IMG/VR virus record: IMGVR_UViG_3300043570_004127
Location: 105,328 to 169,327 of that record
Direction: 5' to 3' (one strand)
DNA: 64,000 bases
Source of the DNA: a virus
How positions within the stretch are numbered: position 1 is the first letter of the stretch; each line of letters opens with the position of its first letter. The position numbers and the translations under genes are program-made. Positions 16,020-50,796 of this stretch are shown here, piece by piece. Below the pieces are notes generated by a model. The model ran no database searches. It was not told the origin of the DNA and worked only from the letters and a program-made list of their open reading frames with translations.

Positions 16020-17306
16020 ATGACAATCCAGACATTTACAGCAGGACAAAGACTGACAGCGCTTCAGCTGAACACGCTCCAGGCAAGTGATTTTAATTTT
16101 ACACGTAACGTTCGAAATGATTTGACGTACACTTTCGCCCTTTCAGATAAAGGTAAATTGGTAGAAAGCACTAATGCTGGTGCGGCTGTTTTCACGATAG
16201 CCAATGACAGTTCTGTCGAATTTACCGTCGGCGACAGAATCGATGTTCTTCTTGCTTCTGTTGGCTCGGTAACCATTTCTCCTGCCTCTGGGGTGACCCT
16301 GTATGCCGAGGGCGACATCACAACAGTTGCCTCAGCATGGACAAGGCTCACCCTTATCAAGAGAGCGGAAAATTCCTGGGTTATGACCGGTACTGGAATG
16401 TCTGTCCAGACCGTGGAACTAGACGACCTTGCAGTCACGACTGCAAAAATCGCCAACCTCAACGTTACAACTGGAAAAATAGCAGATGATGCGGTTAACG
16501 GCGACAAAATTGCGGACTCTTCTGTAACCTCGGCACACATTGTTGATGGGACCATCGTCAACGGGGACGTCAGTGCTTCTGCAGCGATTGCTTATAGCAA
16601 ATTGAATCTTGGGACGTCAATCGTTAATGCTGATGTGAGTGCATCTGCTGCGATTGATTATGCCAAGTTAAATCTTGGCACATCAATTGTTAATGCTGAC
16701 GTCAGTGCATCTGCTGCGATTGTTGACACAAAACTTGCAACCATCTCAACCGCCCTAAAGGTATCGAACTCAGCAACGACAGCAACGAATGCTAATACGG
16801 CTTCTGCAATTGTTGCCCGCGATGCTTCTGGCGACTTTTCCGCTGGAACCATTACTGCAAATTTGACAGGCATAGCAACCTATACGGCGGAGTGGGTTCT
16901 TGGAGCAAATGGTTCTAGTCACTACACTTTTGCAGGACCAGGTTTCACTGGTTCTGAAGACGACCCCATCCTCCACCTGGTTAGAGGGCAAAAATATAAA
17001 TTCACAAATACGATGGGAGCTCATCCGTTCAGAATCCAAAGCACTGTAAATGGTTCTACGGGAACTGCGTACAATGACGGAATAACAAACAACGATGTTT
17101 CGAACGGAACATTAATTTGGGATGTTCAGTTTGACGCTCCTACTGTCCTTTACTACCAATGCACTGCTCACGGAACAATGGGTGGCGCAATTTATATTGT
17201 TAACGACACTGCTTCAATGATTGGTACTCGCACTGTGTTCGTTCAACAAGCTACGCCAACCGCTCTTGCGACTGGGGATATCTGGTTCCAGGTAACAGGA
17301 CTCTAA
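16020..17306 (+). CDS. Tail fibre protein A
   Basis: TFTAGQRLTA anchor-like start; VTTAKIA and IVNADVSASAAI repeats; DPILHLVRGQKYKF...HPFRIQ...LYYQCTAHGTMGG cupredoxin-like domain; C-terminal PTALATGDIWFQV. Confidence 0.8.
   Translation: MTIQTFTAGQRLTALQLNTLQASDFNFTRNVRNDLTYTFALSDKGKLVESTNAGAAVFTIANDSSVEFTVGDRIDVLLASVGSVTISPASGVTLYAEGDITTVASAWTRLTLIKRAENSWVMTGTGMSVQTVELDDLAVTTAKIANLNVTTGKIADDAVNGDKIADSSVTSAHIVDGTIVNGDVSASAAIAYSKLNLGTSIVNADVSASAAIDYAKLNLGTSIVNADVSASAAIVDTKLATISTALKVSNSATTATNANTASAIVARDASGDFSAGTITANLTGIATYTAEWVLGANGSSHYTFAGPGFTGSEDDPILHLVRGQKYKFTNTMGAHPFRIQSTVNGSTGTAYNDGITNNDVSNGTLIWDVQFDAPTVLYYQCTAHGTMGGAIYIVNDTASMIGTRTVFVQQATPTALATGDIWFQVTGL
16554..16736 (+). repeat. Intragenic ~66-bp (22-aa) tandem repeat, about 3 copies
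   Basis: IVNGDVSASAAIAYSKLNLGTS / IVNADVSASAAIDYAKLNLGTS / IVNADVSASAAIVDTKL. Confidence 0.85.
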
Positions 17307-17307
17307 T

Positions 17308-19194
17308 ATGGCAATTCAATGGGGTGCATACGTTGGCCCTGCGTCAGGCTCAGGATTTAGTACTTCCAACAGGATGCGCGTTGGCGTTGAGCTTACCGCT
17401 TCAACTCCAGCGTCAGGTCTGGATACAACCAGCACCATAACTGCTCAGATGTACACCCAGAACGAATTGTCTGGTACATCAAACTGGAATGATGCTCAAA
17501 CACTGTCATCCGTTGCAAGCGTTGCTGGAGCCACATGGGGAGCGGGTGGTGCGGCTTTTACAAACCAGGAGTCAAACGGAATAACTGCTAGAGGTGTTCT
17601 TAAAACCTACACCTATACATACTCAACCTACGGTTCCAGCCCTGGAAATATCTCTTTCCAAGCAACTCTCGGTGGAGCGTTTAACGGCATCACTCCGACC
17701 GTGACTGCAACTCTTGCAATTCCCGCAAGACCTGTTACAACGACTACCACAACTACTACAACTACTACCACAACGACCACACCAGCACCGCCGTTTTTCC
17801 CGCCAGAATTTACACCGGCAACGACTACAACAACGACTACCACTACGACGACTACGCTCCCTCCGGCTACTGCTCCAGGCGCACCAACAACAGTTCTCGG
17901 AACTGCTGGTAATGCTCAGGTTGCATTGTCTTGGACAGCTCCAGCTTCGAATGGTGGGGCATCGATTACCGATTATGTAGTGCAGTATTCTTCTGACTCG
18001 GGCTCAACATGGGCAACATTTGCTGACGGTACATCAACTGCAGCGTCCGCCACAGTAACGGGTCTGACGAACGGAACAAGCTACATATTCCGTGTCGCAG
18101 CAGTGAACAGTGTTGGGACTGGAAGTTACTCAACATCATCGTCGGCAGTGACGCCGGTAACTACGCCGGGGGCACCAGTAACGATTACCGCAACTCCTGG
18201 TAGTGGAGAAGTTGGATTGACATGGCTTGCCCCTGCATCAACAGGTGGGTCAAGCATCACTGATTATTCCGTTCAATATTCTTCTGACTCGGGTGGAACG
18301 TGGAGCTTGTTTTTTGAGGGCGTGTCAACCGCAACATCAGCAACTGTTACAGGCCTGACGAACGGAACGAGTTACACATTCCGTGTTGCTGCGACAAACA
18401 GTGTTGGGACTGGACCTTACTCATTGTCATCGTCGGCAGTGACGCCTTCTGCTGCAACAACTACGACTACAACCACCACTACAACTGCTGCCCCTACGAC
18501 GACTACAGCTACAACCGCTGCTCCTGGTGTGAGTATCTCCAAGGTTTGGAATGGTTCATCCTGGGTTGCTACAACCCCCCAGGTATGGAACGGAACGGCA
18601 TGGGTGTCAGCAATATCCCGCGCATGGGATGGTATTCAATGGGTGGCTCCAGGGGCTACGACTACGACGGCTGCTCCAACGACAACTACCACTACCACGA
18701 CGACGCTTGCTCCAACGACTACAACAACGACTACCACTGCCGCCCCTACGACTACAACAACGACTACCACTGCCGCTCCTACGACTACGGCTGCGCCTAC
18801 AACAACTGGAGCCCCTCCATGCTTCGGTTGTACTACTGCCTCGTGGGACGGTGTCACGTATTCATGCGATGGCACAATGAGTTACGAGTATTGGACGGCT
18901 GGATGTCCTGGATGTACAGGTGAAGGCGGATATAACGGAGCCTACAGAGACGGGAAGTGCGGTTACACGGCACCCGTGACCACCGAGGCCACGGCTGCAC
19001 CAGTTGTTTGCACTCCTTTCGACGGATATTCCTGGACTGGGGGCTATTACTATGGAGCACTCAACGAAGGTGGAGCGAGCTGTGCAACTTGGTGTAGCTG
19101 CAACCCAGTCACCAATGGCTATAGTCAATCTGTATGGAAAATATACGCCAAAGCCGGTTGTGGAAACGCCAACCTATTCATAGGCTGTAGTTAA
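17308..19194 (+). CDS. FN3-domain virion protein with mucin-like poly-Thr tracts and a Cys-rich C-terminus
   Basis: Two FN3 domains (LSWTAPASNGG...DYVVQYS...VTGLTNGTSYIFRVAAVNSVGTG), three T/TTTAAP tracts, a PPFFPPEF motif, 12 C-terminal Cys. Confidence 0.85.
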   Translation: MAIQWGAYVGPASGSGFSTSNRMRVGVELTASTPASGLDTTSTITAQMYTQNELSGTSNWNDAQTLSSVASVAGATWGAGGAAFTNQESNGITARGVLKTYTYTYSTYGSSPGNISFQATLGGAFNGITPTVTATLAIPARPVTTTTTTTTTTTTTTTPAPPFFPPEFTPATTTTTTTTTTTTLPPATAPGAPTTVLGTAGNAQVALSWTAPASNGGASITDYVVQYSSDSGSTWATFADGTSTAASATVTGLTNGTSYIFRVAAVNSVGTGSYSTSSSAVTPVTTPGAPVTITATPGSGEVGLTWLAPASTGGSSITDYSVQYSSDSGGTWSLFFEGVSTATSATVTGLTNGTSYTFRVAATNSVGTGPYSLSSSAVTPSAATTTTTTTTTTAAPTTTTATTAAPGVSISKVWNGSSWVATTPQVWNGTAWVSAISRAWDGIQWVAPGATTTTAAPTTTTTTTTTLAPTTTTTTTTAAPTTTTTTTTAAPTTTAAPTTTGAPPCFGCTTASWDGVTYSCDGTMSYEYWTAGCPGCTGEGGYNGAYRDGKCGYTAPVTTEATAAPVVCTPFDGYSWTGGYYYGALNEGGASCATWCSCNPVTNGYSQSVWKIYAKAGCGNANLFIGCS

Positions 19195-19230
19195 GCGCAA
19201 ATTCTATTCCTAGAATAAACAGGAGAATAC

Positions 19231-19467
19231 ATGTCAGACGCACCAAGATTCATCAACCCACGAGAAACACCAGACGGATTCGAATGGTTTGCCTTTGTTG
19301 TAGATGGCGAAGTGGCTTGGTCGGAGCCTGTACCAATCCAAGAAGAAGCAAAAATTGCTGCACTTTTGTCTGGTGTGCAAGCGGTACGTCTTGCCGGAGA
19401 TGAAAGATTCACGGTTATTTCTGGATACGGATACACGGATGGTGTATTCACTCCTCCGACTGTCTAA
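19231..19467 (+). CDS. Small hypothetical protein (fibre-associated)
   Basis: SD AGGAG; 78 aa; upstream TAGAAT at 19211-19216. Confidence 0.7.
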   Translation: MSDAPRFINPRETPDGFEWFAFVVDGEVAWSEPVPIQEEAKIAALLSGVQAVRLAGDERFTVISGYGYTDGVFTPPTV

Positions 19468-19497: not shown

Positions 19498-19728
19498 ATG
19501 ACAAGTCCATGGCAAGAGTATAAAAAAAAGCTCGGCGACACACGTCCGTGGGATTTGGTAAACCCACATATTGAACACGTTTCCGAGGACGTTTCATCAG
19601 CGCGATACGCAATATGTGAAGCGTGTCCAAGTTTGCTAAAACTTACCCACCAGTGCAAAGAATGTGGTTGCTTCATGAAACTAAAAGTAAAACTACCTGC
19701 AGCAGCTTGCCCGCTCGGCAAATGGTAG
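19498..19728 (+). CDS. Small Cys-rich metal-binding protein (DUF6171-like)
   Basis: RYAICEACP...QCKECGCFMKLKVKLPAAACPLGKW pattern. Confidence 0.75.
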   Translation: MTSPWQEYKKKLGDTRPWDLVNPHIEHVSEDVSSARYAICEACPSLLKLTHQCKECGCFMKLKVKLPAAACPLGKW

Positions 19729-20741
19729 TAAAAGAGAATTTAAATAAGTACAAGATAACCGATGCCCAAATAGACCCATTCGGTTACTGTAACGCGAAGT
19801 GCTGGTTCTGCCCTGTCAGGTATCAAAAGAATCCCCCACATGCAGCAAAGCATATGCCGGTTGATTTATTGGACAAGATATTTTCTGAGTTGATAAAAGA
19901 AAAAGAAAAACCAAACGGTGTAGTTGAAGCAAACTTTAATCATTTTTATACCGCTCACTACAATGAGATTTTGCTATACAAGCACTTGGACGAGATGCTG
20001 TATTTGGCCAAATGTTATGGGTTAAAAACCATGATACTTTCAAACGGTGTCAATCTCACCGAAGAAAAGGTGGAGATACTCCAACGACACAAAGACGTTA
20101 TAAGCGGAATCAATTTAAACATTCCCGCATTTGAGGATGGTTTATGGCAGGAACGTTCAGGAGTCACAAGATACGATTTTGACCATGTAAGACAAAACGT
20201 ATTACGAACAATGGAAGCGTTTCCAGAATACACAGCAAATGGAGCGTTTTCAATAGGTGTAAATATACCCACCGCGCCGCACATGGAAGAAAATGGCGGA
20301 CGGATGGAGATGCTCGAGAATGCACCAAAGATAGATTTGGACCCCTTGACAGGAGAATCTCCGACACAAGTCGCATTGGCTAAATCGCTATTTCCCGGTC
20401 TCACTGTTTATCCAGTGGAATCATTAATTGATAGGGCTGCGATACTGGCAGAACATAAAGTGATTGATAATGCCAAAGCAATTTTGAGGTACAACAAAGG
20501 CGATAAAACTAGAGTAGTTGGTTGTTCTAATGGAACAATTGGGCGAATATATGGCTGGCTGCATGTCAACGCCCTTGGGGAAGCGTTTCTCTGCTGTAAC
20601 GATTATGACTTTGACTATACTTTTGGCAACATGAACGACAGCACACTCGACGAGATATGGCGTAGCGACGAACATGCCGCAATGATAGAGAGAGCCTTGG
20701 GTTCAATATGTGTGTCTTGCGCAAGCGCTATATGGAAATGA
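19722..20741 (+). CDS. Radical SAM enzyme with SPASM/twitch domain
   Basis: CNAKCWFC (CxxxCxxC); C-terminal GCS...VNALGEAFLCCND...GNMNDSTLDEIW...CVSC; likely start ATG 19722. Confidence 0.9.
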   Translation: MVVKENLNKYKITDAQIDPFGYCNAKCWFCPVRYQKNPPHAAKHMPVDLLDKIFSELIKEKEKPNGVVEANFNHFYTAHYNEILLYKHLDEMLYLAKCYGLKTMILSNGVNLTEEKVEILQRHKDVISGINLNIPAFEDGLWQERSGVTRYDFDHVRQNVLRTMEAFPEYTANGAFSIGVNIPTAPHMEENGGRMEMLENAPKIDLDPLTGESPTQVALAKSLFPGLTVYPVESLIDRAAILAEHKVIDNAKAILRYNKGDKTRVVGCSNGTIGRIYGWLHVNALGEAFLCCNDYDFDYTFGNMNDSTLDEIWRSDEHAAMIERALGSICVSCASAIWK

Positions 20742-20742
20742 T

Positions 20743-21666
20743 ATGGCATCGATATTCATACAAATACCTTCTTATAGGGATTTTGAATTAAACAAAACTG
20801 TTGCCAGCGCAGTGACCAATGCGAGCGGAGCAAACAAGCTTTCGTTTGGTATTCATAACTGCATTTTGTTTGATGGCGAAATAGAAGTTAAAACAGATTA
20901 CCCAGAATGGGTCACTATTAACTCGGCGACAAGTATTGCACCGCAAAACATAGGCCTACAGCAGGCAAGGTATTTAGCAAACGAGTTTTACGACGGAGAA
21001 GACTACTACCTTCAAATTGACTCGCACATGCGATTTTTCGAAAATTGGGACGCATCACTCATCAACGATATACGCTACTATCAAAACCTGGGCTTGCCTA
21101 AGCCACTTATTACTCAGTATCCGCCAGCTTATACATACAACGACGACGGAAAAGAAAACATTCAATTCAATCAGCCGTTTTATCAATGTGGAATCTGGTT
21201 TGGCGAGAAGGTAGAAAATTTTAAGGAAACCCTAATTCCCACACAGCAAGCTCGGGTTCTTTTTGATACTTGTGGATTTATTAAATCTGTTTCTGGCGGT
21301 TTTATATTCACACTCGGAAGTTTTGCAAAAGTTAAACCAAATCCAAAAATTGCCTTTTGGGGAGAGGAACCACTGATTGCCGCAAGGGCTTTTACTCATG
21401 GATTCGACCTGGTGATGCCCTTCTCTCACAATGTGTCTCATTTATATCACTCTCAACAGACATTTGCCAAAACACGTCGCCACCACATATGGGGTGATTT
21501 TTCAGAAATCTGGGGGATGATGGATGCTGAATCCAGAACAGAATACAAGAGAATATTCACCGAACGAATAATTGGCGAAGGGGCATTAGGGACAGAACGC
21601 ACCCTAGATGAATACGAGGAGTTTTCTGGTTTAAATTTCAGAGACGGAACCATAACCTCATTATGA
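20743..21666 (+). CDS. GT60-family glycosyltransferase ([Skp1]-hydroxyproline / polypeptide alpha-GlcNAc transferase-like)
   Basis: SIFIQIPSYRD.EL, G...AR, YYLQIDSHMRF..NWD, LITQYPP, SGGFIF, FWGEE, RAFTHGFD, HLY: the Gnt1/GlcNAc family motif series; start ATG 20743. Confidence 0.85.
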   Translation: MASIFIQIPSYRDFELNKTVASAVTNASGANKLSFGIHNCILFDGEIEVKTDYPEWVTINSATSIAPQNIGLQQARYLANEFYDGEDYYLQIDSHMRFFENWDASLINDIRYYQNLGLPKPLITQYPPAYTYNDDGKENIQFNQPFYQCGIWFGEKVENFKETLIPTQQARVLFDTCGFIKSVSGGFIFTLGSFAKVKPNPKIAFWGEEPLIAARAFTHGFDLVMPFSHNVSHLYHSQQTFAKTRRHHIWGDFSEIWGMMDAESRTEYKRIFTERIIGEGALGTERTLDEYEEFSGLNFRDGTITSL

Positions 21667-22241
21667 AGAATCTCAAAAAGATAAGTGACGATATATATAT
21701 TGTAAACCTTGTTAGCGGTCGACTTGCTGCGAGGATTATGGATTCCATAAAATTACTCGAAAAGAAAGAGCCATGTGGAGGAAGTGAACGAAACCAGTTT
21801 ACGACACATTCCATAAGTGATTCCGCCTGTGTTGGTGGAATAAGACTTACAACAATTCTGCAATCGATATTCAAGAGACTAACAAATCAATACTTTCTGA
21901 GTACTGGCGTAAGACTAGAAGTTCCATCGTTCCCGAATCAAAGCTGCAATATCAAGAGTCAAGTCAAAGGCCAATCACACGGGGTGCATACCGATGGAGG
22001 GGACAAGGATTACGGAATTGGCAGGATTCTCCACTCGTCGGTTATATGCCTAAATGATGACTACGAGGGCGGGAGCACGCAGTTTTACCTAACTGGGACA
22101 ATGGAAGAACCAAACATTGATATTGACATAAAACTCAAGGCAGGTCAAGCATTAATATTTGACGCGAATCTGAACTATCATGGGGTTACCGAAGTCCTAT
22201 CTGGGACTAGGTTTAGCTTGATTCAATTTTGGAGAGAGTAG
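21663..22241 (+). CDS. 2OG-Fe(II) oxygenase (prolyl-4-hydroxylase-like) 1
   Basis: HTD...LNDDYEGG...HGVTEVLSGTRFS. Confidence 0.9.
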   Translation: MKNLKKISDDIYIVNLVSGRLAARIMDSIKLLEKKEPCGGSERNQFTTHSISDSACVGGIRLTTILQSIFKRLTNQYFLSTGVRLEVPSFPNQSCNIKSQVKGQSHGVHTDGGDKDYGIGRILHSSVICLNDDYEGGSTQFYLTGTMEEPNIDIDIKLKAGQALIFDANLNYHGVTEVLSGTRFSLIQFWRE

Positions 22242-22243
22242 TC

Positions 22244-23314
22244 ATGAATACAGATAGCGATAACAGATTCTACGGAACGACACCAGATGTCCGCAATGAC
22301 GAAACTGTGTCCGAAATCTTTAACATGCAATTTGAAGATTTGGGTGGTGGGGTAATTCGTTTCCCGGCAGCAATAGATGTTGACAAAGACATGCTTTTAC
22401 CGTATATAGATAAAAACTCAAAATCCGCGCACGAACAAAGATGGACGTGGGCCAAGGATGAAGAAGGCAATGACTACGCAATAAACGAAGATGGCAACAA
22501 GTTTTCTCCAGAACAGGTAAAGATGGTTCCAGTAAGACTGCTTGAAGTAGTTAACTCTGGGACAGAGCCAGAGATGATAGAAGTGTTTAGATACTGGGAA
22601 GACACTATTTACAAGTGTCTCCTGCGGTACATAGATATATTCCCAATGGTCCTTGGAACAATCTGGTGGAGAACCAAGGGTCACGTAATGCGCTATGACG
22701 AGGGGGCATTCCTTGGCATACACAACGACAACGACTCAAATTACAGGGCCACAGGTGGCGAGCGATTTGTGCCGCGTGGACAAATACAGATGCGTCAAGT
22801 TGTGGCGGTGATGTTCTACATTAACGATTGTGTTGAAGATGAATCAGAACTAGATGGCACAAACTTCACTGGTGGGGAATTAGTTTTCCCATATCTCGGA
22901 ATAAAGAACACTCCAAAAACCGGGGATGTTGTTATCTTCCCTGCAAACTACATTGCAACACATGGAGTTGAGCCAGTGAAAAAGGGCGTCCGATATGGAT
23001 ACCTTGAATTCTTCAGTCAAGGAAGCAGTCACGATGAAGTTGGAATTAACGTTTCAGAACCAGATAAATGTGATGGCTGGTGTAGGCCACACTTCATAGA
23101 TGCGCTTTATGACGACTACAAGCACTACTGCAAGCAAACCGAATTCATGGGGAATGGTGATTCAGCAAAAGACGCAAACGGAATGTTTAAAGCAAATCCG
23201 GTTTATCAAAACAGAACGCTTGAAGGTGAAAACGGTCTAAAGAAGGCTTATTCACATTCCCAGGTTGTATACGACAATGAGCAGCGCGGCAGGGAACACA
23301 GCAGCTTGTACTAA
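22244..23314 (+). CDS. 2OG-Fe(II) oxygenase (P4H-like) 2, LGGG subfamily
   Basis: HND...FTGGELVF...FPANYIATHGVEPVKKGVRY; start ATG 22244. Confidence 0.9.
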   Translation: MNTDSDNRFYGTTPDVRNDETVSEIFNMQFEDLGGGVIRFPAAIDVDKDMLLPYIDKNSKSAHEQRWTWAKDEEGNDYAINEDGNKFSPEQVKMVPVRLLEVVNSGTEPEMIEVFRYWEDTIYKCLLRYIDIFPMVLGTIWWRTKGHVMRYDEGAFLGIHNDNDSNYRATGGERFVPRGQIQMRQVVAVMFYINDCVEDESELDGTNFTGGELVFPYLGIKNTPKTGDVVIFPANYIATHGVEPVKKGVRYGYLEFFSQGSSHDEVGINVSEPDKCDGWCRPHFIDALYDDYKHYCKQTEFMGNGDSAKDANGMFKANPVYQNRTLEGENGLKKAYSHSQVVYDNEQRGREHSSLY

Positions 23315-24045
23315 GTGTTTTCTACGATACCAACGTGAACATAACCCTGCCCGGAATGCTGAACATCTGCTGCAAGACTATTTAGCTTGTTTTCTTCCTG
23401 AACCTCCATCTTTGCATCCCCTTGGCAGAACCACTGCAGATAAGAATTCCTTACCCCGGATGTGATTGGCTCAACTTCATGACAGCCCATAAATGACGAC
23501 GGATATATCAAAACCGAGCCAACTTTTGGACGTACGGTTATACCCCACGGCCTGAATCTTATATTTCCTCCCTCGTATTCCTCATTGAGGGCCATTGAAC
23601 CAGTAAGGGTGTTGTGGAGCGGGAAGGTGTTCAGAACATTCCCTTCCTTGTCGTAAGGTAGGGCACAGTCGCTATGCGGTCCAATAGTTTGACCAATTGA
23701 GTACGAAGCAATCTGCCCACCTGTTCTCCAGCCAATACACTCAATTGCTACTGGGAACGAGCGACAATATTCAATTAGGCATCTATAAATGCCGTCATTA
23801 ATCAAGGTTGTTATTTCTTTTGTGAATTCGGAGCCGTATGAAAGTCCATTAAACCTGGTTGGCATTTTTAATACGTGCTCTTGCGTAACCGCGTAACCGC
23901 CATCATTGGTTAATGACTCAACATTCACGCCATGCGTTGCATCTAGATTTTCAGCAAAAATTCTTTCAAGATATGCCTCGAAATTGGATGCGTCTACCAC
24001 ATCTTCAAACAGCATTACCCCGTTCCCAAGATGCTTCACAATCAT
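23311..24045 (-). CDS. 2OG-Fe(II) oxygenase (P4H-like) 3, LGGG subfamily
   Basis: HSD...LNEEYEGG...HEVEPITSGVR. Confidence 0.9.
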   Translation of the reverse strand: MIVKHLGNGVMLFEDVVDASNFEAYLERIFAENLDATHGVNVESLTNDGGYAVTQEHVLKMPTRFNGLSYGSEFTKEITTLINDGIYRCLIEYCRSFPVAIECIGWRTGGQIASYSIGQTIGPHSDCALPYDKEGNVLNTFPLHNTLTGSMALNEEYEGGNIRFRPWGITVRPKVGSVLIYPSSFMGCHEVEPITSGVRNSYLQWFCQGDAKMEVQEENKLNSLAADVQHSGQGYVHVGIVENT

Positions 24046-24914
24046 GAGTGCATACTTTCAACCAGGCTGTGACCAACCGAAGTTTTTCCTGGGTCGACCT
24101 TATTTAGGTAATCAGTAAAGTCGGAGCGAAGTGTTGGCATGTACACATTGGTTGCGGTTTTTGCCAACTCAGGCGACTCCACTGGGTCAACTATGTGCTC
24201 GTTAACAGCCTCGTTTGGTGTTCCGTGGGAATACCATCCAAGATACGTGTACCTACTACCGCCGGTAGTCTCCTTGACTTCATGAGCAGCCATGTAGTTC
24301 GACGGGAACATCAATATGTCGCCGGCGGAAGGTTTGTAGTCAATGTCAAGATAATTAAAGTAATGATGCCCGCCTTCAAAATTATCGTTCAAGTACACAA
24401 TGCATGAGATTGTGTTTCTCGTGGCCAGCTGGTCGTGTGGGTGAGGGAATCCATAGGCATAGTCGGCACTCGTGTCGGAGTGCGGCCCAAGAAACTTACC
24501 ACCATTCTCCACAGAATAAGAAACCAGGTGACCTTTTACTTTCCACCAAACGTTCTTGTATGCCAAGGGGAAAAGATAGAAGTATTTGAGTAGATATGCG
24601 TCTTTTGATTTCTCCACAAACTCCAGAAAATCACTTATGTCCTCATCTGGATTCTGGTGTATTCGTGAACCGCGGCGAGGCATTTGATTCACTCCGTCGG
24701 CATCAAAATAGTACCCACTTCTATTTATGAATGCAGGTTCACCTGTCTCTGGGTCTATTGCCTCTTCGTACATTTGAGCGCGTTCTTCCGCGACTTGTTT
24801 TTCTGCAAATGCGCTTGCCCAATCGTTGTCGAAAGAGATGGCTCCACTAAAAACAACCACTCCACCGCCGAGGTGTTTGGGCTCCACATCGTTGAACTTC
24901 TGCTCTTGATTCAT
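24042..24914 (-). CDS. 2OG-Fe(II) oxygenase (P4H-like) 4, LGGG subfamily
   Basis: HSD...YLNDNFEGG...HEVKETTGGSRY. Confidence 0.9.
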   Translation of the reverse strand: MNQEQKFNDVEPKHLGGGVVVFSGAISFDNDWASAFAEKQVAEERAQMYEEAIDPETGEPAFINRSGYYFDADGVNQMPRRGSRIHQNPDEDISDFLEFVEKSKDAYLLKYFYLFPLAYKNVWWKVKGHLVSYSVENGGKFLGPHSDTSADYAYGFPHPHDQLATRNTISCIVYLNDNFEGGHHYFNYLDIDYKPSAGDILMFPSNYMAAHEVKETTGGSRYTYLGWYSHGTPNEAVNEHIVDPVESPELAKTATNVYMPTLRSDFTDYLNKVDPGKTSVGHSLVESMHS

Positions 24915-24932: not shown

Positions 24933-25256
24933 ATGAGCGAAAAAAACGAGGCATTCAATAGGTGGACTGAAATAATGGTTCAGGAGTTCGCCAAGCTACC
25001 TAATATGGTCGAAAAAGATGGCTACAACAATTGGGCAGACAACATACTCCCAGGCCAAATCGAGGACAAGTATTACACGGTCGGCCGCACTGGAGCAGAA
25101 GCAATGATGGCTTTCTGGGGAGACATTGCCGATGGCAAGATGGCCGACTTGTTAAATGAGTTCAACGTACCAAATCCACTTGGGCTAATACACTCATCAA
25201 GCACGCTTGCTAAACACCTTTTTGTGACCGAAAAGATGTTCTCAAAAAAAACTTAG
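24933..25256 (+). CDS. Hypothetical protein (107 aa)
   Basis: ATG 24933 (MSEKNEAFNRW...) fills the gap between two - strand genes; the track start at 24684 overlaps oxygenase 4. Confidence 0.7.
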   Translation: MSEKNEAFNRWTEIMVQEFAKLPNMVEKDGYNNWADNILPGQIEDKYYTVGRTGAEAMMAFWGDIADGKMADLLNEFNVPNPLGLIHSSSTLAKHLFVTEKMFSKKT

Positions 25257-29021: not shown

Positions 29022-29289
29022 TTGTCACCTCGTATAGAGCAGCCTGCACATCAAACCAAGCACGGCGGACATTTCTTGTCAGTGTGATATTTTGTCTTTT
29101 TATATAGTCCTTAACACTGGAATCAATTTCGGTGTCATGGTCATATCGGTATCTGTCTCGAATTGCGTTTACGCAATCGTCTATTGTGATTTCGTCAAAA
29201 CGCGATTCATCAAACCCGAGTATGAACAAGTATGCTGCAAGCTGTTCTGAACGATACGCCAAATCGGCAACTGGGTCATACCTGCTCAT
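29008..29289 (-). CDS. Hypothetical protein (93 aa)
   Basis: Overlaps neighbours in a tightly packed - strand operon. Confidence 0.65.
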   Translation of the reverse strand: MSRYDPVADLAYRSEQLAAYLFILGFDESRFDEITIDDCVNAIRDRYRYDHDTEIDSSVKDYIKRQNITLTRNVRRAWFDVQAALYEVTNGTR

Positions 29290-29467
29290 CTTTTTCCTTT
29301 TTCACATCAAACATTGCTACACCTTGACACATTGATACAGGCTTACCAGCAACATAATAGACACCGGTGCTTGAGTCCCATTCAATAATCTCGTTATCCC
29401 ACTCTTCGGCGTCAGTTATTGCTTCACCTTTTCTGGTGCTCATCTTGAAGTCTTGTGGCTCATCCAT
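29276..29467 (-). CDS. Hypothetical protein (63 aa)
   Basis: Tightly packed operon. Confidence 0.6.
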   Translation of the reverse strand: MDEPQDFKMSTRKGEAITDAEEWDNEIIEWDSSTGVYYVAGKPVSMCQGVAMFDVKKEKDEQV

Positions 29468-33105: not shown

Positions 33106-33166
33106 CCTGTCAAAGCCCAATGTTTTTACCCGCAACCTTCACAAACGCTTCATCCATTACTGCAGT

Positions 33167-44987: not shown

Positions 44988-45575
44988 TTACCACCAATTA
45001 GCAATGGAGTACTTGGTGCCGCTTATTACTGGTTTTGCTTCATGCCTGAATGGTGCTCCAGATGGGAAAATTACAACATCCCCGGCTACCGGCTCATAAG
45101 TAAAATTTAAATCCTGAAAATATAACTCTCCGCCTTCATAGTCGTCATTGAGGTAAGCAACTGCCGAGGCATAACGTCTGGTTCTTTCACCATTGTCTAG
45201 ATGGGATACATAGTGCTCGCCAATTGAGTATTTCAAGATTTGGTAACCAAGTGTTGAGTTGGATTTAATGCTAAGACCAAATTTGTTATTAAAGTGCTGC
45301 AGGCATGGCAGAACGCATTCGTGGATTTTGTTTGCCAGCATGACCTCTGCGGATGACTCATCGCCTTTCTGGGTCGGCGCTGGGGTGAACATTAGTTGGT
45401 TTGTCCTTACATCAGATATAAATACTTTGCCTTCGGTGTCGATAACCGTTGATTGACTCCAGTCGCCCTTGCTGTCTGTGGAAATATTTAATAATTCTGA
45501 AGCTTCTATTATCTCAAAAGGGTAAGCGATTGCGTTCCTGTAAATACATACACCATTGACATTGATGTGCTTCAT
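44988..45575 (-). CDS. 2OG-Fe(II) oxygenase (P4H-like) 12
   Basis: YQILKY..GEHY..HLD...YLNDDYEGGELYF...FPS...HEAKPVISGTKYS. Confidence 0.92.
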   Translation of the reverse strand: MKHINVNGVCIYRNAIAYPFEIIEASELLNISTDSKGDWSQSTVIDTEGKVFISDVRTNQLMFTPAPTQKGDESSAEVMLANKIHECVLPCLQHFNNKFGLSIKSNSTLGYQILKYSIGEHYVSHLDNGERTRRYASAVAYLNDDYEGGELYFQDLNFTYEPVAGDVVIFPSGAPFRHEAKPVISGTKYSIANWW

Positions 45576-45643: not shown

Positions 45644-46108
45644 TTAAACCTCGTTGTTGCTTTGTGTTCTGCTTTCAATTGCCGTCTTTGCAAACTTATT
45701 AACAAAATTTGCTGCTGATTCAGTTGTTTTCAACTCTGACCAACTATCGCTAAATGAAAATTGACGCTGATATTCTTGTTCATAATCTGCGACTATCAAG
45801 CCAACGAGCCTGGTCATCACTCCTTCTCGCTGATGGTCTGGATGGGTCATGGCCACCCATGGCTTTCTGATTCCATCCATCATGTAGTCGATGTACACAC
45901 CAACTAGCAGTCCGTCATCATTTCTAAGCATGTTAAAAGTAAATGGCATCGCATAACCAGGGTTTATTGATGGCCAAATAAATTCCCTTACCATCTTGCT
46001 GAATCCTGGTTCCCCATATTCTCCAACAAGGTTTTCCATGGTAAGCCAGTCTGCAAAGTGGTCAAACTCCGCTTTAGGTGATATGTCTTGCCAATTATCA
46101 TCACTCAT
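45644..46108 (-). CDS. GNAT-like acetyltransferase
   Basis: THPDHQREGVMTRLV (acetyl-CoA binding motif A), TESAANFV. Confidence 0.65.
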   Translation of the reverse strand: MSDDNWQDISPKAEFDHFADWLTMENLVGEYGEPGFSKMVREFIWPSINPGYAMPFTFNMLRNDDGLLVGVYIDYMMDGIRKPWVAMTHPDHQREGVMTRLVGLIVADYEQEYQRQFSFSDSWSELKTTESAANFVNKFAKTAIESRTQSNNEV

Positions 46109-46120
46109 GATTAAACCTTA

Positions 46121-47167
46121 TCAAATACATGCACATTCTCCCTTGATGCAAATTAGATAACACCCAGCGGTAGTTTCAGGCGGCGGCGGAGGCGGCGGAG
46201 GCGGCGGAGGCGGCGGCGGAGGAGGCGGAGGAGGAGGAGGAGGAGGAGGAGGAGGAGGAGCATCAGGTGAAGTTTCCGAACAGAAAACGGTGTCTGAATC
46301 TGCATAACCGAATCTTTGAACCTTTAGATATGCGGAACGCGATTCTGAATAGCCAAGTCCTGTCCAGCCTTGACTTGTACCGAATGTGTCGTTAGGGCAA
46401 AGGCCGCCAGCACAGTCAAAATAGTTGTAGAAATATCCACCGCTAGAGTTTGCAACATATGTTTGGTCGGCTGGTTCTAAGTAATTGCTAAAGTTGATTC
46501 CAACACGTCCTAGTGTATCGTCGTCCATCGCAAATTGAGGGGTTGGTATTTTGCTATTCAACGGAGTGATTGAACTAGACGCAGTCGAGTAGCTTCCAGT
46601 TCCAATTGTATTTACTGCAGCTACTCGAAACACATATGCGAACCCGTTGGTTAAGCCAGTTACCGTCACCGACGTCAAAGTTGACGCAGCGCGACTAAAC
46701 GTCGTCCATGTTGAGCCACTGTTTGAAGAATACTGAACCGTGTAGTCACTGATTAACGAACCAATCGATGCTGGAGCTATCCATGAAACAGCAGCCGTAG
46801 TATTTCCATAAGTGCTTGGAAGAGTTACTGTTGGTGCGAGTGGTGCGGAAGGAACCCCACCGAGAACAAGCGGACTAGATGCTGTTGATACTGGAGATTC
46901 TGTCGCCGATGTGTCATCAATTGCAACAGCGGTAAAAGTGTAGGTTTGACCAGCAGTTAAACCAGAAGATATTGAAACACTTGCCGAGCTAGATGTTTCG
47001 GTTACTCCGTTGCTTGCAATGACCCTGTAACGAACTGCTCCCGATTTACCTTTGTACCCAGTATGCGTGATTGTTACAAGAGCATTACCAAGTGCATCGA
47101 CGGCTCCAACTACTGCGGTTGGTGGTTCAATGAACTTTCCACCACTTGCCTGATTGCCCGGAATCAC
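46121..47167 (-). CDS. FN3-domain protein with a Pro27 tract and Cys-rich tip
   Basis: FN3 (VSWIAP...DYTVQYSSNSGSTW...VTGLTNGFAYVFRVAAVNTIGTG); 27 Pro; ends GCYLICIKGECACI. Confidence 0.85.
   Translation of the reverse strand: MIPGNQASGGKFIEPPTAVVGAVDALGNALVTITHTGYKGKSGAVRYRVIASNGVTETSSSASVSISSGLTAGQTYTFTAVAIDDTSATESPVSTASSPLVLGGVPSAPLAPTVTLPSTYGNTTAAVSWIAPASIGSLISDYTVQYSSNSGSTWTTFSRAASTLTSVTVTGLTNGFAYVFRVAAVNTIGTGSYSTASSSITPLNSKIPTPQFAMDDDTLGRVGINFSNYLEPADQTYVANSSGGYFYNYFDCAGGLCPNDTFGTSQGWTGLGYSESRSAYLKVQRFGYADSDTVFCSETSPDAPPPPPPPPPPPPPPPPPPPPPPPPPPPETTAGCYLICIKGECACI
46178..46258 (-). repeat. CCT/CCG trinucleotide repeat encoding 27 consecutive prolines
   Basis: (GGA/GGC)n on the + strand, 81 bp in frame. 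Confidence 0.95.
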
Positions 47168-50100
47168 GACGCCGCCAAGTCACCTATAACAAACCACTCG
47201 TTTGCATTTTCTGTTTTGACTATTGTGCACGAAGAGTATCTGGCCCTCAAGTAAACACCCGGTGTTGCGAGGAGTGTCACTCCGGCACCTGCAAGAATTC
47301 TTGTCTTACCAGTTCCTCGTTGAATAACGGTGATGCTTGTACCAGTTCCAAATGCAACACTCGAAGCCGGTGGAACAGTCAGGTCATTGGCAGAGCTTGA
47401 GTCCATAATAATGATTGTCTCTGCAGCATCACCAATCGCAAGTGTGTAGTTGCCAGCCTTTGCACTGAGTGATTGAACACCCGTTGTTGAAACTGAAGCT
47501 GTAGAACCTTCCCCCTGAGTATGGGAGATAGCAATACCAGTACCAGCCACTACTTCCAGCATGTAATTGCCAGTTGTGTCAGTTCCCAAAGCAATTGAAC
47601 CGTTCAGTGCAACTGTTCCGCTCGCATCCGGAAGGCTTACAGTCCTATCTGCAGTTGGGTTAACAACGGTAAGTACTGTTTCAAACTCATCTGTTGTTGA
47701 ACCCTCAAATGTGATGAAATGTGGTTCTGGAAGATAGATACCATGAATTCTCGGAGTTCCACCAGTAGCCGTAATTTCTGGTCCATTAATAGTTGGCGTC
47801 GTAAGAGTTTTATTGGAAAGAGTTTGGGTTGTATCTGTTCCAACCAGAGTTGTGGTTGCATCAGGAAGAGTTATAGTTCTGTCTGCAGTTGGGTCTGTTA
47901 CAACAAGGGACGTTTCGTAATCGTCCGCGGTGGCTCCTTCAAAGATAACTCCGCCACCCACAGTTACACTTCCTGCAACAGTGAGATGACCTGGGTCAGA
48001 AATGGACGAAGATGCAAGAATTTGAGCTGAACCTTGTATCTCTGTTTTGCCACCACCAACTGCAGCGTTTGAAGTTACTCGCACGAACCTCGTTGCCTCT
48101 TGGCTTATCAATTCAACGGTGCCAGTGTTTGGTGCAATAAACCTTATTCCGCTAGCCGTTCCAGCATTATCAGCCAAAAGCGCACTTCGTGCTCTTCCGT
48201 CAGTAAAGTATAAATTTGTAGTTCCCTCTGTTACGTTGTCAGAGTTACCCGTTGTATCGGTTCCTAGGTTGATTGGGTCATTGGTCCAATAGCTTCCATT
48301 CCATTTTAGAAAATCTCCCGATGCAGGGGAGTTGAAAGCCCGCACTGGACGAACATAGAGTGAGTTACTCTTTGCGGAAAAACCTTGTCCGCCGTCACCT
48401 AGATTTTCATATTTGGCTTGTGTTGCGCTGTGTTCCGTAGAGCTCCAGTAATTATTGCTAAGCAATCCAGGAATGGTGCCAGCTTCTAAACTTTCGACTG
48501 CATAGAGTTCTTGTAACTCATCAATTGATGGAAGGAACCAGTCTGAAAAACCACCATATTCATATCCGGATGCGTATGCAGCCGCGCTAGTTGCGGAAAC
48601 ATTTCCAGACTGAGCAACAATGTCTATCGTGTTTTGAGCACCGAAGCCGAATCCGGTTGCATCTGCCCCAGAAACCGCCAATGATTGGTTTCCACCAGTA
48701 GCCCAACTTCTTTGAACCTGGGACGCAGATGGTGCAACTTCGAAATACTTGCCAGTAGAGTTACCAGTTGTATCTGGAGTAATGAAAATTATCCCGCCAG
48801 CCGGACCAGTCGCACCAATTTGATATGCGGTTGAAACATCTGGGAGGTCGCTAAGGCTGGTAAGGGATGCTGCAGATATGTCAGCCGTAGTTCCAATTTC
48901 TAAATATGCGCTACCGTCTTCCGTGATTTCCCACTTGTCAGATGTCTCGTTCCAGCGAAGCGCAACATTCGCCGAAGAACCACGTTCAACTTCAATCCCA
49001 GCGTTTTCCGTTGGGGCTGCAGTCACGTTGCTATTAAGAACAACGAGATTGTCGTCAACCATCAACTCTGTGGTGTTAATTGCTGTCGTTGTTCCAGAAA
49101 CCGTCAGGTCTCCAGTTATTGTCAAATTCGCAAATGTAACAGATGCGCTTGTTCCAACTGCCTGACCAATTGCGATAGTCGGAGTCGCCGTTTCTCCAGA
49201 GTTATTGGAGAGGGTTACGCCCGTACCTGCAACGAGAGATGAAACGTAATCTCCAGTTGTTTTGACACCAAGGGCAACAGTGTTGTCTGGAAGCGTTACC
49301 GTCCCAGTAAATGTTGGAGATGCAAGCGGTGCTTTAAGGTCAAGCGCAGTTTGCGTTGCTGTAGATACTGGCTTGTTCGCATCTGATGTGTTGGTTACGT
49401 TGCCGAGACCAACCATCGTTGCCGAAACTCCAGAAACAGTTCCAGTGAATGTCGGGCTAGCGAGTGGCGCCTTATCATTCAATTGTGTTTGAATTGCAGA
49501 GGTTACACCATCTACATAATTGAGTTCAACAGTTGAAAGAGTTGCCCCATCAAGAATGTTTAGCTCTGCAGCTGTAGACGTAACTCCAGTTAAGTCTGTC
49601 GGCGCGATAGATATATCTGACGAACCATTAAATGACTGTCCAGCAATATTTCTTGCTGTTTGCAGTGTAGTTGCAGTTGAAGCATTTCCAATCAGTGGAG
49701 CAGTAATCGCAGCAAACTGCACCGATGATGAAGTTCCAACTGCCTGTCCAATTGCAATAGTCGCATTCGAACCTTCGCCAGGGGTGTGTGTAATCGAAAC
49801 GCCTGTTCCCTGCGTAAGGTCAGACATATAATTTCCACTCGTGTCGGTTCCAAGGGTAATTGAATTTATTTGGACTGTTGCTGATATGGAAACATCTTGC
49901 GAACCATCGAAAGACACAGAACCCGATACATCACCCGATAAAGAGATTACTCGTGCCGTCTCCAAAGTTTCTGCTGTAGTCGCATTAATTGTTCCACCAA
50001 GTAAGTTTGTTACTGAGTCGTTATACCAGTCGTAACCGTCAAACGCAAGAACATCTCCCTCGGCTGCAGCATCTATGTATACGTTGTCTAGTTCATCCAG

Positions 50101-50796
50101 CAATGGGAACTCTGGAGTTAATGTAACTTGTTGCCACGAACCTGAATAGTATGTATAGAGTTCAAGCTCGCTTGAGTTGTACCAAAGGTCACCGACTCTT
50201 ACCTCGTCGGTTGGCTCCGTGTCCGAAACAGTAATAAAGTGGATTGTTTCGTTAATCCAAGCAGAAGCGGAGTTCTTGTAAACCAGGAAATCCCCTTCTT
50301 CGGCATCGCTAATTGTTACGTCACCAATGTCGTTCAGGTTGTTGATTGTCGGAATTGAAGCCCACTCAACACCAACCGATGCCGAGTTATTTGCCTTGAG
50401 AAAGTATCCGTCGGTTCCAACGCCAAGTCTGAAAAGACCGTTACCGTCGGTTACAAGCAGGTCGCCTTTTGTCGTTAACTTGCTTACAAGTTCGTTTGCT
50501 TCATCAGCGTCGTTAGCTGTAAATACTGGGTAGATGACAGAGCCAATTTGGTGCTCTGAAGCGGTGGTGTCATCCTGGGCTCTAACGAGAGTGAGTGTTG
50601 AACCAGATATGGTTGCAAGACACTTTTCTTCAGTGAGTGAAGACGGATTTATGACAACATAGAAAGGGATGCCAGCAATTGATGGCCATCCAGTGGTCGC
50701 CGCAATGTCAACAGTTGTCCCAACGTTAGTTAAGAGTGTTGTTGTAGTCGTATTGCGAGCCGCGCCCGAATATTGTTTGCGTGTATATGCTGCCAT
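47164..50796 (-). CDS. Tail fibre C with an internal DUF1566/C-type-lectin-like domain
   Basis: LTLVRAQDDT N-terminus; modules shared with the 40612 fibre; DWFLPSIDEL...YWSSTE...VRPVRAF; C-terminal shared domain. Confidence 0.85.
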   Translation of the reverse strand: MAAYTRKQYSGAARNTTTTTLLTNVGTTVDIAATTGWPSIAGIPFYVVINPSSLTEEKCLATISGSTLTLVRAQDDTTASEHQIGSVIYPVFTANDADEANELVSKLTTKGDLLVTDGNGLFRLGVGTDGYFLKANNSASVGVEWASIPTINNLNDIGDVTISDAEEGDFLVYKNSASAWINETIHFITVSDTEPTDEVRVGDLWYNSSELELYTYYSGSWQQVTLTPEFPLLDELDNVYIDAAAEGDVLAFDGYDWYNDSVTNLLGGTINATTAETLETARVISLSGDVSGSVSFDGSQDVSISATVQINSITLGTDTSGNYMSDLTQGTGVSITHTPGEGSNATIAIGQAVGTSSSVQFAAITAPLIGNASTATTLQTARNIAGQSFNGSSDISIAPTDLTGVTSTAAELNILDGATLSTVELNYVDGVTSAIQTQLNDKAPLASPTFTGTVSGVSATMVGLGNVTNTSDANKPVSTATQTALDLKAPLASPTFTGTVTLPDNTVALGVKTTGDYVSSLVAGTGVTLSNNSGETATPTIAIGQAVGTSASVTFANLTITGDLTVSGTTTAINTTELMVDDNLVVLNSNVTAAPTENAGIEVERGSSANVALRWNETSDKWEITEDGSAYLEIGTTADISAASLTSLSDLPDVSTAYQIGATGPAGGIIFITPDTTGNSTGKYFEVAPSASQVQRSWATGGNQSLAVSGADATGFGFGAQNTIDIVAQSGNVSATSAAAYASGYEYGGFSDWFLPSIDELQELYAVESLEAGTIPGLLSNNYWSSTEHSATQAKYENLGDGGQGFSAKSNSLYVRPVRAFNSPASGDFLKWNGSYWTNDPINLGTDTTGNSDNVTEGTTNLYFTDGRARSALLADNAGTASGIRFIAPNTGTVELISQEATRFVRVTSNAAVGGGKTEIQGSAQILASSSISDPGHLTVAGSVTVGGGVIFEGATADDYETSLVVTDPTADRTITLPDATTTLVGTDTTQTLSNKTLTTPTINGPEITATGGTPRIHGIYLPEPHFITFEGSTTDEFETVLTVVNPTADRTVSLPDASGTVALNGSIALGTDTTGNYMLEVVAGTGIAISHTQGEGSTASVSTTGVQSLSAKAGNYTLAIGDAAETIIIMDSSSANDLTVPPASSVAFGTGTSITVIQRGTGKTRILAGAGVTLLATPGVYLRARYSSCTIVKTENANEWFVIGDLAAS

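Follow-up and report, generated by a model that had tools for sequence, protein, structure and literature searches.

The window analysed here, the last 64 kb of the 169,327-bp IMG/VR record IMGVR_UViG_3300043570_004127 (rated complete by CheckV), is best explained as the tail-fibre module of an uncultured myovirus with three appendage-tailoring cassettes, in each of which a fibre gene is followed by a gene for a small protein with fibronectin type III (FN3) domains and a low-complexity tail, and then by enzyme genes. We consider it fairly probable that the phage uses these enzymes to modify the tails at its own fibre tips, and this is the reading best supported at the level of genomic inference. 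The part that concerns a GT60 glycosyltransferase is likely and stands above the whole, and the parts that concern a GNAT-fold acyltransferase and a radical S-adenosylmethionine (SAM) protein stand below it. Gene content, conserved linkage, fusion forms and enzyme family membership are observed directly, and three differently tailed cassettes with three enzyme sets in one genome provide a built-in comparison.

An earlier note on this DNA had claimed that one gene order recurs three times in the direction of transcription, and our analysis recovered that order in each cassette, with every gene at the coordinates given in the note and listed below. Cassette A (+ strand) runs from a fibre to an FN3 protein with poly-Thr tracts, two small genes, a radical SAM protein, GT60 and two oxygenases; cassette B (- strand) from a fibre to an FN3 protein with a (PPxF)19 tail, two genes of glutathione peroxidase (GPx) fold and a run with nine oxygenases; and cassette C (- strand) from a fibre to an FN3 protein with a run of 27 Pro, a putative GNAT, for which the evidence is weaker, and an oxygenase resembling prolyl 4-hydroxylases (P4H). 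The domain of about 90 amino acids (aa) that the note had assigned to all three fibres is indeed common to them and spans ~95 aa by alignment: residues 163-259 of fibre B are 58% identical to residues 1112-1210 of fibre C and 39% identical to residues 36-124 of fibre A, the domain being C-terminal in two of the fibres (B and C) but close to the N-terminus in fibre A.

Genes within the cassettes overlap or abut, and gaps are mostly ≤68 nt. Low-complexity tracts of the kind found in the FN3 proteins occur in 6 of the 216 open reading frames (ORFs) of the genome, and the FN3 domains themselves match tail-protein PHROGs. Self-similarity of the repeat DNA is only 76-82%, which implies that the repeats are maintained at the protein level. 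Fusion forms occur in four loci of other phages (L037, L049, L070 and L071), where a single protein joins the shared fibre domain to PPFF motifs, small Cys-containing modules and linkers of the (TP)n, (APV)n or TTTAAP type. Because other phages join both parts in this way, we take the FN3-tail proteins that are encoded separately in the window to be probable distal extensions of their fibres; each fibre would thus be followed by a translationally coupled small FN3 protein that extends it, and the cytoplasmic enzymes encoded after the FN3 gene would most likely modify its low-complexity tail before assembly.

Cassette A, which contains the GT60 module, consists of the following genes:

16020-17306 (+): fibre A, 428 aa; phrog_677 (4.9e-34) and phrog_892; shared domain at aa 36-124
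17308-19194 (+): FN3_A, 628 aa; two FN3 domains (2.9e-26)
19231-19467 (+): 78-aa protein with the motif FxFV(I/V)DGEV...G(W/Y)xxDGxF
19498-19728 (+): DUF6171-like protein, 76 aa; PF19668 (2.6e-5) and phrog_13558 (5e-17)
19623-20741 (+): radical SAM protein with a SPASM/twitch-like C-terminus; PF04055 (38.9 bits) and PF13186 (38.7 bits)
20743-21666 (+): GT60 glycosyltransferase (polypeptide alpha-GlcNAc-transferase family); PF11397 (4.8e-36)
21663-22241 (+): 2-oxoglutarate (2OG)/Fe(II) oxygenase, 192 aa; PF13640 (3.4e-9); HxD...H and R kept
22229-23314 (+): 2OG/Fe(II) oxygenase with an N-terminal extension, 361 aa; PF13640 (6.1e-10); PKHD/PiuC profile matches

The GT60 protein matches PF11397 with 125.4 bits (cut-off 21) over profile positions 112-303 of 352, and both its N-terminal signature IPSYRD, at the nucleotide-binding start, and its QIDSH motif (with the metal-binding GT-A DxH residues D93 and H95) are invariant across 24 homologs of 41-73% identity. 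Sequence searches of solved structures with GT60 and with the 361-aa oxygenase, which has three paralogs on the - strand, gave no match for either. FN3_A comprises an N-terminal domain, poly-Thr tracts (runs of 15, 12, 10, 9, 8 and 8 residues), a PPFFPPEF motif, the two FN3 domains, TTTAAP linkers and two C-terminal Cys-rich modules, with 12 Cys in the last 125 aa. Since FN3_A homologs with Thr linkers and Cys modules are also encoded upstream of GT60 in other phages, FN3_A is a candidate GT60 substrate.

Scanning IMG/VR with GT60 yielded 32 loci (40-81% identity over the best aligned segment) on several different phage backbones. A strongly Thr-rich protein is encoded three to five genes upstream of GT60 on the same strand in 15 of the 21 loci with enough upstream sequence; this filter is strict, and weaker linkers (TTTT, ATTAAP, ATT or S/T-P) are present in four of the remaining six loci. 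Nearly all end in Cys-rich modules. Within the same loci, Thr-rich ORFs account for 16 of 124 just upstream of GT60 and for 3 of 316 elsewhere (p = 3e-7), and in other loci for 19 of 2,951. As many as 19 of the 32 GT60 loci are devoid of any oxygenase, which indicates that the GT60 module stands alone and is not merely a part of an oxygenase island.

In 17 of 24 non-redundant loci, GT60 is preceded within two genes by the DUF6171-like gene, whose product has six invariant Cys in a zinc-ribbon-like arrangement. Modelling this product together with GT60 gave an ipSAE of 0.83 (best control, 0.00), with runs agreeing in at least 66% of contacts and a partner pLDDT of at least 74; by a rough calibration that used our own alignments, 58 of 80 solved complexes score this high, against 2 of 110 mismatched pairs. 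The model thus supports binding of the DUF6171-like protein by GT60. Homologs of the 78-aa protein occupy the same position in other loci (L009, L012, L024, L028-30 and L033-34), and the small domain FxF(V/I)(I/V)DGEV ... GWxWDGxxF recurs more widely (window 19231-19467, L167 10704-11122, and the ~145-aa proteins of L018, L021 and L037-39), singly or within longer proteins and always between the tail protein and the first enzyme. The radical SAM protein carries the cluster motif CxxxCxxC as CNAKCWFC (aa 56-63), and its true start is probably the Met at aa 34. Its C-terminal domain may be twitch-like, as it has only five Cys. Its NCBIfam matches, all weak and all to peptide maturases, lie far under the cut-offs (best 33 vs 380 bits), so that it falls into no characterised maturase subfamily.

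In cassette B, a bank of oxygenases follows an aromatic-proline tail:

36752-37531 (-): fibre B, 259 aa; phrog_8780 (4e-23); shared domain at the C-terminus
35945-36748 (-): FN3_B, 267 aa; two FN3-like domains, exactly 19 PPxF units, end RFK
35363-35941 (HCGN) and 34476-35366 (GCGN) (-): two proteins of the GSHPx fold; PF00255 and NCBIfam; peroxidatic Cys kept
33831-34448 and 33167-33829 (-): two P4H-type oxygenases; PF13640; triad retained
32251-33135 (-): 294-aa protein; no family match; one paralog elsewhere in the genome
31531-32196 (-): P4H-type oxygenase, 221 aa; PF13640 (2.1e-11)
30989-31531 (-): 180-aa protein; no family match; conserved in close relatives
30292-30996 (-): DUF6065 protein; PF19541 (4.1e-45); constant array member
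29672-30289 (-): P4H-type oxygenase, 205 aa; PF13640 (4.7e-13); family profile matches P3H1, P4H and PHD2
29008-29675 (-): three small conserved ORFs of 93, 63 and 71 aa; in synteny with the 244-aa protein in many loci
28287-29021 (-): 244-aa conserved array member; class-I methyltransferase-like fold
27616-28290 (-): oxygenase; PF13640 at 25.4 bits, just below the 27-bit cut-off; HxD...H present
26718-27623 (-): oxygenase of Oxy_5 type; H-x-H, no aligned Arg
26110-26721 (-): GSHPx-fold protein; PF00255 (5.9e-16); without the peroxidatic Cys motif
25253-26113, 24042-24914 and 23311-24045 (-): three paralogous long oxygenases; PF13640; 27-40% identical to 22229-23314

The nine oxygenases of this run start at 33831, 33167, 31531, 29672, 27616, 26718, 25253, 24042 and 23311. 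Two of the three GSHPx-fold proteins retain the peroxidatic Cys, and the one at 34476-35366 scores under the PF00255 cut-off (24.9 vs 27).

An aromatic-proline tail directly precedes an oxygenase array in about 100 loci, and FN3_B is, by its sequence and position, a candidate oxygenase substrate. The oxygenase of cassette C (OXc) has >585 viral relatives; among the best 80 loci, 57 have arrays of at least three oxygenase/DUF6065 genes, and 49 of those 57 have an aromatic-proline repeat. Where the upstream region is visible, the genes lie on one strand in the order shared-domain fibre, FN3-tail protein, oxygenase, oxygenase, DUF6065, ~242-aa protein and more oxygenases, and the tails linked to such arrays include (PPFF)n, (PPGFFA)n, (PPHF)n and (NPPVYY)n. 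To avoid enzyme-based selection, we also drew 80 loci by the fibre domain only. At least two oxygenases and an aromatic-proline repeat were found together in 47 of them and neither in 25; five have oxygenases only (three with weaker PPxF/GPSF tails, one with a short PPYFPPFFPPDF motif and one on a 4.5-kb contig) and three the repeat only, all three on truncated contigs that have one oxygenase at the edge. In many relatives (L054, L057, L060, L065, L075, L083 and L091), a Hint/intein-like autoprocessing domain follows the aromatic-proline tail in the same ORF, with the junction ...PPRF|C[IV]xxDT and the C-terminus ...HN; its Pfam matches (Intein_splicing, 3e-7 and 4e-6; PT-HINT, 9e-5) are all under the curated cut-offs. 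The FN3_B tail of the window ends in ...PPRFK, at the same point where the Hint versions would self-cleave.

As for the nature of these enzymes, the HxD...H triad and the Arg align in 11 of the 12 island oxygenases, the exception being the Oxy_5-type protein at 26718-27623. The profile of the main small-oxygenase family (A5) matches P3H1 (3e-17), the Bacillus anthracis P4H (1e-12), PHD2 (7e-10), the P4H of chlorovirus PBCV-1 (5c5t; 6e-8) and the lysyl hydroxylase LH3 (4e-6), and the family of long paralogs (A4) is more distant (PiuC/PKHD, 3e-4). This placement among protein prolyl and lysyl hydroxylases, and not among enzymes of DNA-acting or metabolic auxiliary type, supports the earlier note's view that the oxygenases would not be metabolic auxiliary genes. 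Judging from their family and their adjacency to Pro-rich tails, we infer that the island oxygenases would hydroxylate peptidyl proline. That they are instead auxiliary metabolic or repair genes, serving 2OG drawdown, succinate supply to respiration, or DNA repair or modification, is very improbable. It is the standard annotation in cyanophages (PMC3037559, PMC9602691), singleton relatives are scattered among cultured cyanophages, and one oxygenase has a sub-threshold Tet_JBP match (23.8 bits vs a cut-off of 34.9); however, TET-like proteins match the A5 profile with only 0.012, about 10 orders of magnitude worse than P4H/P3H, 10 of the 11 PF13640 oxygenases of the genome lie in one block inside the fibre module, and a Pfam search found no DNA methyltransferase or replication genes nearby. 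Moreover, psbA was not found in the genome, so a cyanobacterial host is not established. DNA hypermodification by a TET/JBP enzyme together with a glycosyltransferase was likewise set aside, given the same profile evidence and the lack of DNA-modifying partner genes.

The genes of cassette C are:

47164-50796 (-): fibre C, 1210 aa; phrog_23837, phrog_38058, phrog_8780 and Lcl_C; shared domain at the C-terminus
46121-47167 (-): FN3_C, 348 aa; FN3 domains, a Cys-containing domain, a run of 27 Pro and an 18-aa tip
45644-46108 (-): GNAT-fold acyltransferase (moderate evidence), 154 aa; language-model search, weak Pfam, motif A in homologs
44988-45575 (-): P4H-like oxygenase, 195 aa; PF13640 (1.9e-16)

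The best solved relatives of this oxygenase are the B. anthracis P4H, P3H1 and PHD. The assignment of the 154-aa protein draws on a language-model (Atlas) search (score 0.95, all ten best matches being GNAT), on sub-threshold Pfam GNAT matches (E 0.05-0.17) and on motif A, which reads QRKGIGT in homologs and QREGVMT in the window copy. A scan with this single sequence (u154) gave only two loci, the remaining family members coming from the GT60 and OXc scans. All eight members of the GNAT family (window 45644-47167, L021, L026, L035, L041-43 and L121) occur only after proteins with a terminal tip of 18-28 aa that has 4-6 Cys and a conserved Lys, in contexts such as IKGE, PKLG and FKDG; the tip of FN3_C has four Cys and a Lys. 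From this linkage the conserved Lys is a possible acylation site, and it forms the weakest link of the model.

Taken over all non-redundant tails, T-rich tails (n = 19) have GT60 downstream in 17 cases and DUF6065 in none, and aromatic-proline tails (n = 70) have at least one oxygenase in 69, DUF6065 in 58 and GT60 in 3; one locus (L071) has both tail types and both enzyme types. Other enzymes also occur right after aromatic-proline or Thr tails (L065 2687-3941, L151 10936-11682 and L037 4695-5543), the families found in relatives being a sulfotransferase (PF03567, 5.8e-6), an Asp/Asn beta-hydroxylase (PF05118, 1.6e-12), a PhyH dioxygenase and an NAD-dependent sugar epimerase, of which the first two are protein-tailoring families. 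The comparative genomics that the earlier note had proposed as a check therefore came out in its favour: GT60 goes with Thr-rich linkers, oxygenase arrays and DUF6065 with aromatic-proline tails, and GNAT with the Cys/Lys micro-tip. Its expectation that enzyme content co-varies with tail type holds for this broad pairing, but the pairing is not tightly tuned, as the relatives of cassette C and the radical SAM protein demonstrate.

This looseness is relevant to a competing explanation, which we regard as unlikely: the tracts would be ordinary, unmodified linkers or stalks, the enzymes would act on other virion proteins, the host envelope or host proteins, and adjacency would result from shared late expression and a recombination-tolerant site. 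Indeed, the PT/TP/APV-type linkers between small modules resemble classical domain linkers. Yet the aromatic-proline repeats, kept at the protein level, are far longer and more regular than linkers, the enzyme type follows the tail type across different backbones, and the tail gene stays next to the array, on its upstream side, although fibre size and array content vary greatly.

Several observations, to which the two protein folds described in the next paragraph must be added, nevertheless weigh against modification of the tails by the neighbouring enzymes. The composition of the tail drifts while the enzymes are constant: in close relatives of cassette C, Pro27 is replaced by PPPPS repeats or (TP)n, with the GNAT and the oxygenase unchanged. 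The radical SAM gene is present or absent with near-identical tips (L028 vs L033) and is thus dispensable for the same tip. One locus (L021) has PPP linkers and no oxygenase, single OXc-like genes occur with no repeat protein nearby (L052, L053, L055, L056, L099 and L119), two oxygenases of the genome sit outside the island, and the presence of nine or more oxygenases for a four-residue repeat is not accounted for. The tail-by-enzyme counts given above are partly circular, as most loci were found through an enzyme. Finally, arrays and tails vary together without exception in a fibre-domain tree, but only one contrast lies on well-supported branches and seven lie on unsupported ones. A single supported contrast allows no claim of significance, does not demonstrate that arrays and tails were repeatedly gained and lost together, and does not establish phylogenetic independence; their joint occurrence could stem from a few ancestral events combined with synteny.

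The two folds in question belong to conserved members of the oxygenase arrays. Folded with 31 homologs, DUF6065 gave a model (pLDDT 83) that resembles dUTPase-like folds (VIA Z 10.3, rmsd 4.4 over 119 residues; Foldseek 2.6e-4), and all 13 chains with Z of at least 8 are dUTPases or dUTPase-derived viral proteins, such as HCMV pp71. Identity to dUTPases is 8-16%, and the protein has none of the dUTPase catalytic motifs: the residues invariant among the 31 homologs (R23, W25, H33, Y35, C37, P39, N44, W48 and N112) bear no resemblance to them. The family is mostly viral. The model of the 244-aa protein (pLDDT 75.7) resembles catechol-O-methyltransferase-like enzymes (Foldseek 7.6e-9, TM 0.5); it has the fold, but the glycine-rich SAM loop is not conserved, and we do not claim it as a methyltransferase. 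Both the dUTPase-like fold and the likeness of the 244-aa protein to small-molecule O-methyltransferases would also suit nucleotide or small-molecule chemistry. The oxygenase bank might, together with DUF6065, the methyltransferase-like protein and the peroxidase-fold proteins, make or alter an amino-acid-derived small molecule, an alternative that we hold to be decidedly unlikely. It agrees with the published reading of an array in the cyanophage Syn9, which includes a dUTPase-fold protein (PMC2938197), but a Pfam search of the island and its surroundings found no peptide synthetase, ATP-grasp or other scaffold-building enzyme, the best solved relatives of the oxygenases are the protein hydroxylases named above, and in about 100 loci the first gene of the array directly follows that of a fibre-locus protein with a repeat tail, the Syn9 array itself coming after Gly/His/Cys-rich fibre-locus proteins.

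Returning to modification of the fibre-tip tails as the favoured reading, we infer that the tails are substrates, along with the residues modified and the effect on the virion, as follows. In cassette A, a two-subunit enzyme of GT60 and the six-Cys DUF6171-like protein would put a sugar (by family, alpha-GlcNAc from UDP-GlcNAc) on Thr of the poly-Thr and TTTAAP linkers, and perhaps also on hydroxyproline made by the two adjacent oxygenases, the product being mucin-like, protease-resistant, extended stalks that bear Cys-rich tip modules. In cassette B, the bank of P4H/P3H-type oxygenases would hydroxylate the (PPxF)19 tail at several positions, with DUF6065, the thiol-peroxidase-fold proteins and the methyltransferase-like protein as putative helpers. 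In cassette C, the P4H-like oxygenase would act on the poly-Pro stalk and the GNAT would acylate the Cys/Lys micro-tip.

More tentatively, and with rather less confidence than for the window itself, large uncultured aquatic phages may possess a mix-and-match appendage toolkit of interchangeable tails, each with its own enzyme set. Under this broader proposal, the two-subunit GT60-DUF6171 enzyme would produce mucin-like stalks, oxygenase banks with their dUTPase-fold partner would carry out multi-site hydroxylation of aromatic-proline repeats, and GNAT would act on Cys/Lys tips; in some phages, the Hint domain might cleave or ligate the modified tail at the fixed ...PPRF|C junction. Banks of 2OG oxygenases in phages would then be virion-maturation enzymes that tune adhesion and host range, and not metabolic genes.

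The phage encodes a contractile tail, with a sheath gene at 2682-4142 that matches phrog_23, and the nearest cultured relatives of the sheath are Gordonia and Arthrobacter myophages (~35% aa identity). Proteins of Synechococcus myoviruses share 43-45% identity with some fibre and virion proteins of the phage. Given the relatives of the sheath, the lack of psbA and the finding of no tRNA in the window, an identity as a T4-like cyanophage was dropped. No match was found when 20 kb of the window was compared by megablast with 50,697 phage records, or when FN3_B or DUF6065 was compared by tblastn with the same number of cultured-phage records; for GT60, the matches among cultured phages are confined to jumbo phages of Xanthomonas and Stenotrophomonas, at 26% identity. 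A scan of bacterial genomes with the GT60 alignment returned five loci with uninformative neighbourhoods. One of the five, a 2.4-kb contig from Lake Erken (L214, CAIUKZ010000130.1), carries GNAT, radical SAM and GT60 in the order of the window, its GT60 being 77% identical at the aa level; it is binned in a Bacteroidales metagenome-assembled genome and is probably a mis-binned phage fragment, and its gene order hints at fresh water for the phage studied here.

Between cassettes B and C lie structural genes that are 44% identical at the aa level to Synechococcus myovirus proteins:

37534-44924 (-): 918-aa virion protein, 101-aa protein, 1376-aa fibre (Mtd_N) and 60-aa protein; phrog_5838 (5e-274) and Mtd_N

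Elsewhere, window 55021-62673 (+) encodes a glycosyltransferase (phrog_7162), a methyltransferase-like gene, an NAD-dependent sugar epimerase and then a 1442-aa protein, which has a signal/transmembrane segment at its N-terminus, a transmembrane segment at its C-terminus, a short tract rich in Thr and a region of acidic repeats; homologs lie on the opposite strand, adjoining the fibre genes, in the GT60 loci L010, L029 and L033. The likely endolysin, encoded at 62747-63496 (+) of the window, is a D-Ala-D-Ala carboxypeptidase of VanY type that also has a peptidoglycan-binding domain. Outside the window, two further oxygenases at 54.7-56.8 kb of the genome accompany the paralog of the 294-aa protein (G000:C1:53732-56816), with no repeat-tailed protein flagged nearby.

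The window and its roughly 100 relatives offer testable oxygenase substrates in the form of short repeat tails encoded immediately upstream. If our reading is true, receptor-binding appendages are decorated by hydroxylation, O-glycosylation and acylation, with effects on host range, stability in water, protease resistance and the reading of virion proteomics, and counts of auxiliary metabolic genes in viromes should leave such enzymes out. The known range of GT60 protein glycosylation, so far in protists, would also widen to take in bacterial viruses, GT60 would gain a new two-subunit form, and a set of diverged enzymes of prolyl-hydroxylase type would become available whose peptide substrates are defined.

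Full-text searches gave no paper that links phage hydroxylases or GT60 to virion proteins. In the cyanophage literature, 2OG-Fe(II) oxygenases are auxiliary genes whose role is not settled (PMC3037559, PMC9602691), the proposals made since about 2007-2010 being DNA repair, 2OG/nitrogen balance and secondary metabolites (PMC3037559, PMC2938197, PMC9602691); in cyanophage S-SCSM2R, a 2OG oxygenase was reported among the virion-associated proteins (PMC12801897). Iyer, Abhiman, de Souza and Aravind (2010) described in Syn9 a ten-dioxygenase array with a halogenase and a dUTPase-fold protein with a conserved Cys, which they read as secondary-metabolite biosynthesis, and predicted that some bacterial operons hydroxylate and sulfate co-encoded collagen-like/tail-collar proteins (PMC2938197). 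The Syn9 array and ours share diverged 2OG dioxygenases accompanied by a dUTPase-fold protein, but the published reading ties no repeat-tailed fibre protein to the array, and our window has no halogenase. In the Syn9 genome (L213, NC_008296.2, 24000-52000), the array lies directly after the fibre gp34 and the Gly/His/Cys-rich gp36, gp38 and gp39, a fibre-locus context outside the published reading, and gp43 looks DUF6065-type.

Two analogies drawn by the earlier note did not hold. The candidate substrates are FN3 structural proteins of 267-628 aa or fibre parts with no leader, core and cleavage logic, and family searches of the island found no protease, exporter or RRE families, which does not fit the logic of ribosomally synthesized and post-translationally modified peptides. 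Nor are the tails extensin-like, the repeats being PP[FY]F without Ser-Pro4 and the peroxidase-like genes having only a thiol-peroxidase fold, not that of the class III haem peroxidases, which cross-link Tyr. In extensins, proline-rich proteins (PPVYK repeats) and mussel foot proteins, P4H-type enzymes hydroxylate repeats of Pro and aromatic residues, and glycosylation or cross-linking follows; the likeness to our phage lies in the short repeats of Pro and aromatic residues and is an analogy only, as here there is no haem peroxidase and no secretory pathway, and the repeats also lack Lys.

Closer parallels exist in protists and in other viruses. GT60 enzymes add alpha-GlcNAc to hydroxyproline of Skp1 in Dictyostelium and Toxoplasma, where PhyA acts before Gnt1, or to Thr of mucins in Trypanosoma cruzi (PMC6939170). 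As in the Skp1 system, a cytoplasmic P4H-type hydroxylase and a GT60 are encoded together in cassette A, with hydroxyproline or Thr as potential acceptors; unlike Skp1, where a single Pro is modified, the window offers long candidate Thr/Pro tracts, and its GT60 has a small Cys-rich predicted partner and occurs in most phage loci without an oxygenase. We know of no such partner of GT60 in protists. Chlorovirus PBCV-1 likewise encodes a P4H (5c5t) along with Pro-rich repeat proteins that are its likely substrates, but there it is one enzyme of a eukaryotic virus outside any cassette, whereas here banks of 5-12 diverged oxygenases stand behind aromatic-proline tails in bacterial viruses. As for glycosylation, Freeman and colleagues are said to have found in 2023 (Cell Host Microbe) that glycosyltransferases of mycobacteriophages, encoded next to structural genes, decorate Ser/Thr-rich C-terminal extensions of the phages' own virion proteins in the host cytoplasm; the enzymes were reportedly not GT60, the substrates were capsid and tail-tube proteins, and the sugars were measured. 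The system proposed here differs in pairing GT60 with a predicted zinc-ribbon partner and in having as candidate substrates fibre-tip proteins with poly-Thr tracts and Cys modules.

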